Assembly: GCA_963835065.1 (NCBI GenBank)
Contig: CAWIEK010000002.1
Span: 96,001 to 160,000 of the forward strand
Reading direction: 5' to 3'
DNA: 64,000 nt
Source: an uncultured Chthonomonadaceae bacterium
Lineage (GTDB): Bacteria; Armatimonadota; Chthonomonadetes; Chthonomonadales; Chthonomonadaceae
Part shown: positions 1,591 through 46,144 of the stretch, in pieces
Layout of the letters: each line of letters starts with the position of its first letter
Numbering within the stretch: position 1 is the first letter of the stretch
Position numbers and translations under genes: made by a program
The notes under the pieces: generated by a model
Told to the model about the DNA's origin: nothing
Databases searched by the model: none
Seen by the model: the letters and a program-made list of their open reading frames with translations, nothing else

Positions 1591-1691
1591 TCACTGCAAG
1601 TGCCCCTTCCCCACAACGCAAGCAGCAACCCTCCCGCAAAAACAATCCAGAAAAAAGACAGTAAAAAGAGCAAAAAAACGCCAAAACAAAC

Positions 1692-1719
1692 GAACCCTTT
1701 GTCCAACGCAGCCGTCTAA
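1692..1719 (+). promoter_or_regulatory. putative ECF sigma promoter GAACC-N16-CGTCTAA
   Basis: Identical boxes and spacing at 45850-45877 while the spacer sequence differs. Confidence 0.6.
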
Positions 1720-1724
1720 AAAGT

Positions 1725-1966
1725 AGAATAACGTCTACTGTTTAGATGTTAGACACAGAAGGCGGAACGTTCGCAGTTCCTATCAACTCTCAACTCTCAA
1801 CTCTCAACTAAGAAGGGAGGTGCCAGTTCTATGTTCCGCTTCTCCCATCCGCCCTGACGCTGCGGAGGCCACGACGCCTCTCTCCTACAATCTGACACAA
1901 CGAGACATCGGGCTGGAAGCGCTGTATTGCCAAGATTTCGACGATGCCTCTACATACTCTTTTTCT
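1725..1966 (+). ncRNA. candidate structured sRNA / micro-ORF transcript, copy 1
   Basis: Homologous to 45885-46144. SD AAGGGAGGTG (1813-1822), ORF MFRFSHPP* (1831-1857), covarying stem 1902-1910/1942-1950, T-rich end. Strand inferred from the promoter. Confidence 0.5.
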
Positions 1967-12754: not shown

Positions 12755-12897
12755 CGATAGGTTGAAAACACCCGCTCCGGGGATTAAAAATCCCTGGCAA
12801 CACAAAACAAGCGTCCTACGGACGCAACTCTATAGGAAGATTCCCGCGTCCGCAGGACGCTTGCACTTTCCTGCCGGGGATTTTCAATCCCCGGCCT
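12755..12897. repeat. nested REP/REPIN-like inverted repeat
   Basis: Same inner and outer palindromes as 7795-7925, between convergent genes. Confidence 0.75.
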
Positions 12898-45182: not shown

Positions 45183-45611
45183 TTATCTGCGCATCGATGT
45201 CACATACTCGTAATCGCCAGCCGGAGTAGCGGAAAAGGGCTTGTCCCAATCCTGTATCATCGCCTGCATCAAAATCTCAACCGGGATGCCTAAGCCTTGA
45301 TACAGATTGCGTATCATCTCTATGGTGAGAGGTTCGCGCCGCTCCAAAACTGCGACAACATGGCTGCGTCCACCGAGCAACTCATCTAAAACCTCTTCCG
45401 GCAATCCTCGGCTGTCAAGATGGTACTCTATGGCGGCAATCGGATCAGGCAGTTCAATAGGATAATGTTTTCGCTCGTAAGCCTCAACAAGCGCCATCAA
45501 AACCTCAAGACGGTCGCCTTCGGGCGTATCCGGTGTTGCCCCAAACAGCGCGTTTATCTCAGCCAGAGAGTGGTCATAATCCGCTTCGGTTTTGATAGGG
45601 CTGATGTTCAC
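45183..45611 (-). CDS. higA: HigA-like HTH antitoxin (orphan)
   Basis: PIKTEADY...TPEGDRLEVL..LVEAYE..HYPI..PDPIAAI; SD AAGGAG, GTG start. Confidence 0.85.
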   Translation of the reverse strand: MNISPIKTEADYDHSLAEINALFGATPDTPEGDRLEVLMALVEAYERKHYPIELPDPIAAIEYHLDSRGLPEEVLDELLGGRSHVVAVLERREPLTIEMIRNLYQGLGIPVEILMQAMIQDWDKPFSATPAGDYEYVTSMRR

Positions 45612-45849: not shown

Positions 45850-45877
45850 GAACCTTCTCTGCCTCTATCTCGTCTAA
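45850..45877 (+). promoter_or_regulatory. putative ECF sigma promoter GAACC-N16-CGTCTAA
   Basis: Matches 1692-1719. Confidence 0.6.
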
Positions 45878-45884
45878 ATACATA

Positions 45885-46144
45885 CGCACGTCTACATAAT
45901 AGAGACTGCTAACTAGCCAGGTGGCGGGACGTTGAACGTTCGGAGTTCCTCTCAACAATGAACTATGAACTGCAGCAACTAACCCGGAAGGGAGGTGCTG
46001 GAAGATGCCTGGTCACTCTCCCCGTTCGCCCTGACGCTCACGAGGTCACGACGCCTCTTCCTTACAATTTAGACACAACGAGACAGCGGGCTGGAAGCGC
46101 TGCATTGCCAAGATTTCGACGCTGCCTCTACATACTCTTTTTCT
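45885..46144 (+). ncRNA. candidate structured sRNA / micro-ORF transcript, copy 2
   Basis: SD AAGGGAGGTG (45988-45997), ORF MPGHSPRSP* (46005-46034), stem 46080-46088/46120-46128. Confidence 0.5.

Follow-up and report, generated by a model that had tools for sequence, protein, structure and literature searches.

Repeated, sigma-driven small RNA loci with short open reading frames (ORFs) are represented by multicopy sibling sRNAs and type I toxin-antitoxin repeats, which occur in a handful of copies, and Correia elements are promoter-carrying MITEs. MITEs of the ISAzo13 family are dispersed, high-copy intergenic repeats. Among leader peptides, TnaC and PheL have a short ORF ending in a proline codon followed by a stop (Pro-stop) and then an RNA structure, and Pro-stop is described as a slow, tmRNA-tagged termination site (PMC3082878). 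Arrest peptides of the RAPP or R(H)xPP type (ApdA, ApdP, SecM-type) carry Arg/His-x-Pro in the P site (PMC10951233). tmRNA is a structured RNA with a short ORF that engages ribosomes, and stress-induced ribosome holding is the role of the proteins HPF/RaiA and Balon, the last of which is reported to bind mRNA- and tRNA-loaded ribosomes (PMC10901736).

The element described here occurs twice in the window (the whole stretch of 64,000 nt that was analysed) and shares features with each of these systems. It resembles TnaC and PheL in its Pro-stop frame and ensuing structure, but has its own promoter, 13-162 copies per genome, no amino-acid-sensing codon run and no downstream operon to regulate. 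Arg and His alternate in its peptides as in the R/HxPP arrest peptides (PMC10951233), whereas its A-site codon is a stop rather than Pro (or Gly), it has no N-terminal sensor domain or linked sec/yidC, and 13 copies end in LPP. ISAzo13 ends flank many copies, as in ISAzo13-family MITEs; a cognate transposase with the same ends exists for these flanking shells, but not for the core, and the unit has no terminal inverted repeats (TIRs) of its own, its interior has not decayed neutrally and its cargo is a conserved ORF with covarying stems. The likeness to HPF/RaiA and Balon lies in the proposed role only, since those are proteins and the element would be an mRNA-like RNA. Unlike tmRNA, it has its own Shine-Dalgarno sequence (SD) and start codon and no Rfam match, and the single tmRNA of the genome is, by eye, unrelated to it in sequence. 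In contrast to type I toxin-antitoxin and sibling sRNA loci, the element showed neither a hydrophobic toxin ORF nor a promoter conserved on the opposite strand, and no seed for target pairing was found in it.

Anatomy of the element

A sequence-only reading of the window had proposed a non-coding element in two copies, defined by a series of ordered motifs, all of which are present in both copies at their given coordinates. A BLASTN comparison aligns the two copies with E 2e-44. The features, all on the plus strand, are as follows.

Copy 1
1651..1691, plus: A-tract upstream of the promoter, putatively UP-element-like (A-rich columns)
1692..1719, plus: ECF-type promoter; -35 GAACC at 1692-1696, 16 nt, -10 CGTCTAA at 1713-1719
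1723..1738, plus: predicted 5' hairpin with a second GTCTA, seen as a recurring motif; role conjectural
1758..1810, plus: optional 5'-UTR module of heptamer repeats, within the variable -10-to-SD distance
1813..1822, plus: SD AAGGGAGGTG, complementary to the genome's own 16S 3' end GATCACCTCCTTTCT; conserved columns
1831..1857, plus: micro-ORF MFRFSHPP*, supported by SD and ATG, the Pro-stop family, and synonymous-change and frame tests
1858..1864, plus: 7-nt stop-to-P1 spacer, variable in sequence, fixed in length in 199 of 208 copies
1865..1880, plus: hairpin P1 (GAGGY...GCCTC), 99.2% of cells paired
1881..1901, plus: A/C-rich single-stranded linker, unpaired in the consensus fold
1902..1950, plus: stem P2, GAGACATCG at 1902 with CGATGCCTC at 1942, enclosing AGCGCTG-Y-ATTGCCA at 1918-1932
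1951..1966, plus: 3' tail with T-tract, the likely transcript end, where family homology stops

Copy 2
45850..46144, plus: whole element; promoter 45850-45877 (GAACC at 45850, CGTCTAA at 45871), SD 45988-45997
46005-46034, plus: micro-ORF MPGHSPRSP*
46042-46057, plus: P1; 46080-46128, plus: P2, GAGACAGCG at 46080 with CGCTGCCTC at 46120; tail to 46144

The 3' tail of copy 1 does not have the form of a canonical intrinsic terminator, and a terminator scan makes no call on it. Downstream of copy 1, the nearest called gene encodes an ABC ATPase on the minus strand (2137-2904). The earlier reading had missed the plus-strand micro-ORF behind the SD in both copies. Copy 2 lies upstream of a DUF1559 prepilin-type gene. 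Upstream of copy 2, a minus-strand ORF of 142 aa (45183-45611), which we presume to resemble a HigA-type antitoxin, has no Pfam or NCBIfam match. The window also holds REP-like palindromic mosaics (2009-2030, 2095-2116, 7901 and 12777-12894), of which the genome has ~142 loci.

Family size and distribution

The element is a real, genus-restricted, high-copy gene family under selection. In place of the two copies first described, a whole-genome search of this Chthonomonadaceae genome (G000, 8.0 Mb) found 162, every one scoring above 90 bits and with no decayed tail at E<1e-3, in matches from which the HMM itself was built; recurrence on this scale is far beyond chance. Three pairs of these copies sit within long, 92-99% duplicated contig stretches and are possible strain duplicates, and one further pair arose by tandem duplication, which puts the true count at ~159-162. 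The multi-kb stretches concerned, 92-99% identical across contigs C20/C8, C37/C25 and C1/C28, are likely strain haplotypes in the assembly.

A covariance model made from 48 copies recovered 47 copies in G002 and 13 in G001, two genomes of the same genus. With a limited candidate set scored per genome, the model found the element in 0 of 65 other genomes of the order and gave one weak match only (E 0.03) in a 150-genome sample of the phylum. The Rfam scan that had been suggested returned no match in the 64-kb window, the best hit within 1500-2200 having E=8.1, below the gathering score, and no description of the element was found in the literature searched, in which subscription papers were poorly covered. 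The element appears new by anatomy and copy number, and its function is conjectural.

Four pattern matches in metagenomes were rejected as family members, lacking P1 and Pro-stop; their E-values are inflated, because the matches had been picked by the loop motif. A single promoter-less copy (L083:1482-1625, G205:C7; MLCLLPLPP*) is present in a genome labelled Solirubrobacteraceae, where it starts abruptly inside a truncated gene, presumably penicillin-binding-protein-like, and is likely an assembly chimera, possibly a transfer. Half-elements also occur, either as promoter and 5' part without the core or as the 3' half alone (G000:C54:109078, C24:17599; L045 in G002). Several subtypes have no ECF motif at the usual place (L010, L014, L018, L026 and L032 in G001; L031, L033 and L082 in G002), and those of G001 have longer leaders and 15-16-codon ORFs with GTG, TTG or CTG starts, one with an in-frame stop.

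Promoter and 5' region

The proposal of an ECF-driven promoter has held up, at the level of prediction. The motif [G/C]AA[C/A]C-N16/17-YGTCTA[A/T] is found in 153 of 162 G000 copies, with a spacer of 16 or 17 in 144. A strict version of the pattern occurs 99 times in the genome, on every occasion (99/99) inside a copy, and a weight matrix gave 182 matches, 159 of them in copies, compared with 12 for a reversed control. The boxes are selectively kept, since the spacer between them is only 47% identical across copies. Among the 96 copies with a 16-nt spacer, A-rich columns are conserved at -40..-36, -29..-24 and -7..-5 from the -35 box. Downstream of the -10 box, a [GA]TCTA[CT] motif recurs in 125/153 copies, and the hairpin carrying this second GTCTA is possibly a sigma-dependent pause site or a 5'-end protection; the -10 box and the SD lie 10 to 182 nt apart, depending on the copy.

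Relatives without the element have the promoter motif 0-3 times per genome. Among 20 such loci, the motif stands before an ECF sigma gene in two and before orthologues of a single gene, which we take to be a likely peptidase gene, in another two, and in none of the 20 does a diverged RNA follow the promoter. The G000 orthologues of the two ECF genes have no strong upstream promoter match; the genome has 57 sigma genes. Three G000 sigma-factor genes, two with RpoD-like sequences, have good matches upstream (C9:66897, C63:47650 and one before C69:22939-23139), which hints at a sigma cascade. The element promoter resembles sigmaE promoters of S. coelicolor (PMC6767563). On the opposite strand, no conserved promoter of the same type was seen among 23 off-copy matches; other promoter types were scanned for copy 1 only.

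A search of sequencing runs for expression listed one soil metatranscriptome, which had a word share of 0.05 with the element. One contig from it, of 197 nt, aligns with the core and runs on at its loose end into a related copy, a result that multicopy DNA could also give. A 20-kb control region with rpsL gave only diverged pieces among the matches listed in the same metatranscriptome.

Micro-ORF and Pro-stop

The label "non-coding" is not supported, as the SD is followed by a translated-looking micro-ORF with a Pro-stop end that is conserved in three species. In G000, 153/158 copies with SD and ATG encode 8-11 residues ending in Pro-stop. Across a set of 208 copies (162 from G000, 13 from G001 and 33 of the 47 from G002), Pro-stop is the end of the ORF in 206, and CCN-stop lies 6-8 nt before P1 in 205 and exactly 7 nt before it in 199; of the three copies outside the 205, one has a 9-nt spacer, one ends in Thr-stop and one in Ser-stop. 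By comparison, of the 4,971 called genes 8.0% have Pro as the last residue. Each of the four Pro codons is used, as are TGA, TAA and TAG, and the last three bases of the 7-nt spacer are only 38% identical across copies. The peptides are mostly polar and Pro-rich, and vary freely at the N-terminus. Among 205 copies, they end in RSP (141), RPP (35), LPP (13), RAP (8), HPP (6) or RQP (2), giving Arg-x-Pro in 186, with His in 6 and Leu in 13 at the residue two before the final Pro.

Changes at the Arg codon were synonymous in 32/41 cases on a tree of 197 copies that was built without the ORF and is coarse, inflating counts of repeated change. For Pro and stop, the count of changes as all synonymous is in part circular, since copies had to carry CCN plus stop to pass the filter. 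The frame was kept in 16/24 ORF length changes, against 10/50 for the SD-ATG spacer (Fisher p=2e-4), and the three species have no shifted or readthrough frame open in common. We read this pattern as suggesting that selection acts on the behaviour of the ribosome at the stop, rather than on a product.

RNA structure and strand

The view that the RNA is structured is supported by covariation, with 28 double-change cells compared with 9.6 +/- 2.4 in shuffles (0/500), although these represent few independent events, because most double changes come from one G001 subtype. The stems are paired in 89%, versus 38-58% in slid controls. In P1, 99.2% of cells are paired, and 5 copies of G001 have U-A in place of A-U; at the base of P2, 83.6% of cells are paired and 4/9 pairs show double changes. 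The compensatory change from a T-A to a G-C pair noted earlier is real in the two window copies, but the position is unpaired in 34/48 aligned copies. The most invariant part of the element is AGCGCTG-Y-ATTGCCA inside P2, which is unchanged across the three species; its palindrome AGCGCT (window 1918-1923) is a candidate kissing loop or protein site. No complement to the P2 loop beyond 8-9 nt was found in the assembled rRNA stretches, with 5 off-copy near-matches genome-wide, and a search for rRNA or tmRNA mimicry or pairing, against ~6 kb around each 16S locus, gave no stretch >9 nt.

Predicted folding adds little to these comparisons. Neither strand beats shuffles in folding energy (z -0.35 and +0.24), and the predicted probability of P2 is only 0.18-0.43 (143 copies). 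Pairing of the SD is 0.50 with the ORF's own pyrimidine tract (146 copies), versus 0.05 with the pyrimidine tract after P1; the latter, earlier proposed as an anti-SD, is moreover not conserved in the other two species. An A-C mismatch in the stem with the T-A to G-C change had been thought to hint at the minus strand. It is a tolerated mismatch (A-A 65, A-C 65 and A-U 29 of 162), with A-U in 42/46 copies of the other two species, and is therefore no argument for that strand. Over 14 pairs, G-U cells exceed A-C cells (189 vs 79), but one position contributes 155 of the G-U cells and one position 66 of the A-C cells. A minus-strand reading was rejected, and the plus strand rests mainly on the order of promoter, SD, ORF and T-tract.

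Genomic context and probable concerted evolution

Using our own calls of 6,831 genes in G000, the gene downstream of a copy is convergent in 96/156 cases and co-directional in 60/156. The element is therefore not a leader, in agreement with the earlier description of a standalone RNA. The sense-sense arrangement is depleted (22 vs 45 expected), and in co-directional gaps there are 56 antisense and 22 sense copies (p=1.5e-4). Among neighbouring copies less than 25 kb apart (n=34 pairs), 17 pairs face each other and only 3 point away, a post hoc observation. Gaps below 10 kb between copies number 4/105 in G000, compared with 23 expected (0/5000); the shortage does not reach significance in G002 (1 vs 3.9, p=0.08) or in G001, and even spacing was rejected as a family trait, being seen only in G000.

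One flanking repeat is the TIR of an ISAzo13 (PF07592) element. ISAzo13 ends occur in 42/149 intergenic regions with a copy, versus 18/1,393 without; 5/162 copies lie inside ISAzo13 TIR pairs, 2 of them with a TAA duplication, and no such TIR lies near the two window copies. In the 26 copies with a downstream ISAzo13 end, pairwise identity is 70% for the TIR, 69% for the linker and 93% for the core: the transposon ends have decayed and the cores have been kept. The element itself is not a MITE end, a match that had been named in advance as evidence against it. Two full ISAzo13 elements of 1,361 bp in G000 (C41:162053-163413 and C53:451924-453284) share the TIR found beside copies and carry no such RNA. 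Their transposase is encoded in two overlapping frames meeting at an A-run, possibly a programmed frameshift. G000 also has ~29 ISAzo13-derived TIR pairs of 78-132 bp with a TAA/TTA target and, elsewhere, a MITE family of ~99 bp whose ends differ. Of the three genomes, G000 and G002 contain ISAzo13, and none was detected in G001; TIR matches near G002 copies are rare (3).

Positional matches, defined as copies whose neighbouring gene has an orthologue next to a G000 copy, were found for 7/24 testable G002 copies (p=0.003), leaving 17/24 without a match, and for 1/7 G001 copies. At the 8 shared positions, cross-species core identity is 66-87%, ranking 73rd-123rd of 162, and the G000 copies there are 92-94% like their own paralogues. 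The cores are species-specific even at shared positions, and therefore change in concert within a genome, pointing to concerted evolution by conversion or replacement; independent re-insertion at favoured sites could also give this pattern. Similarity among copies could be maintained by gene conversion even if selection did not act on every one of them. No empty insertion site with clean boundaries was found, and the one paralogous pair without the element has unrelated filler.

Possible functions

The reading that we prefer, at a probability of roughly 45%, is that the element specifies a stress-induced RNA that would hold ribosomes at Pro-stop and act by dosage. A predicted ECF (stress) promoter would drive an RNA of ~200-270 nt, which would load a ribosome onto the 8-11-codon frame. 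The ribosome would be held at Pro-stop, with the conserved fold docking just outside the mRNA entry channel and the invariant P2 loop binding the ribosome or a factor. Activation of a single sigma factor could in this way yield many RNA-ribosome complexes, which may serve as a ribosome store or as a sink for a termination or rescue factor. The copies would have spread partly as cargo of ISAzo13-derived mini-transposons, and concerted evolution, like that of rRNA genes, would keep those of one genome similar. The sequence itself shows the parts with their order and spacing, the conserved Pro-stop, the covarying stems and the preserved core beside decayed flanks; each functional step (transcription, translation, slow termination, and binding of the ribosome or a factor by the P2 loop) is inferred.

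The ribosome channel is reported to hold ~11 nt after the first P-site base, with hairpins at 11-12 nt blocking the A site and those at 13 nt not doing so (PMC7282821). P1 starts 13 nt from the first base of the Pro codon and is probably not a simple A-site block, because a 13-nt spacer relieved blocking (PMC7282821); its place at the edge suggests that it may stay folded against the terminating ribosome, and not clearly that it blocks. The ribosome-holding reading draws on the near-constant Pro-stop, the frame-keeping length changes, the covarying stems, the preserved cores and the failure to find HPF in the three genomes of the genus. Among the observations that count against it are the single metatranscriptome contig, the unremarkable folding energy, the few independent covariation events, the 13/205 copies that end in LPP, without Arg, and the mere 13 copies with which G001 manages. 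There is no expansion of release factors in G000, which has only 2 RF-1-domain genes, and no ArfB or PrfH is seen there for that reason.

HPF was not found in G000, G001 or G002, and four HPFs from relatives have no tblastn match in G000 (best E 0.18), so that an RNA substitute for HPF is conceivable. HPF is present in 104/121 genomes of the phylum but in only 9/41 other genomes of the family. It is undetectable in the remaining 32/41 and G000, complete genomes included, and absent from 30/39 other family genomes without the RNA. At its usual place after ispDF, G000 has an 83-aa membrane-like ORF (G000:C11:41844-42095). A baeRF3 protein, presumably Balon-like, is encoded in G000 and G002. Since most family members have neither HPF nor the RNA, and G000 and G002 have baeRF3, the link is not specific, and replacement of HPF was dropped as a specific explanation unsupported by the distribution. 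It is in our view unlikely that this is RNA-based hibernation in an HPF-lost lineage, in which a stress sigma factor would fire up to 160 mini-genes whose RNAs trap a ribosome at Pro-stop and lock it by their fold, with possible kissing-loop clustering and concerted evolution like that of rRNA operons.

The active part may instead be the 3' fold, as a protein sponge or scaffold perhaps multimerising through its AGCGCU loop, with translation serving only to shield or fold the RNA. This is doubtful, yet it fits the clustering of invariant bases in the P2 loop, the freely varying peptide N-terminus, and the predicted rise in pairing of P1 from 0.64 to 0.91 and of P2 from 0.18 to 0.38 when the ribosome footprint is forced open. 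A Pro-stop and a fixed 7-nt spacer would, however, be needless for shielding alone, the loop has no rRNA complement beyond 8-9 nt and only the 5 off-copy near-matches, and no partner protein was identified. It is improbable that the element is a selfish repeat that rides on ISAzo13 mini-transposons, is made uniform by gene conversion and brings the host no benefit. The enrichment of ISAzo13 ends beside copies, the 5 copies inside TIR pairs (2 with TAA duplications), the tracking of copy number with the presence of the IS (162 and 47 with, 13 without), the 17/24 G002 copies without a positional match and the species-specific cores all agree with such an origin, but transposon ends have decayed while cores persist, both full-length IS copies are without the RNA, and G001 has kept 13 structured copies with no ISAzo13 match. 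The synonymous and compensatory changes across species, moreover, need selection.

The orientation of copies against their neighbours, the shortage of gaps below 10 kb and the 7/24 G002 copies at G000 positions could point to local action of each copy, which might serve convergent genes as an insulator or roadblock, supply antisense RNA or mark chromosome spacing. We also hold this to be improbable, marginally below a selfish origin, as the spacing is not significant in G002 or G001, polar effects of insertion explain the orientation bias, and most positions turn over. That the product is the point, as a signal or toxic peptide or as a longer protein recoded by a +1 shift at CCC-UGA, is very unlikely. 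CCC-UGA is described as shift-prone (PMC3082878) and in 130/162 G000 copies the +1 frame runs through the core without a stop, but this holds in only 5/13 copies of G001 and 10/33 of G002; CCA- and CCG-TAA variants cannot shift in the same way, and the peptides are short, variable and for the most part not hydrophobic.

Implications

Bacteria rarely keep more than a few copies of one small RNA gene, and here there are up to 162, dispersed copies that keep promoter, start signals, Pro-stop, spacer and fold, and that change in step within a species. The element is a clear case of transposon cargo outliving its vehicle. The host is a soil bacterium, and the cassette, at ~250 nt, makes in vitro work possible without culturing. 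If the RNA does hold ribosomes, it would represent a new form of translation control under stress, with an mRNA-like RNA in place of a protein, in a family mostly without the usual hibernation factor.
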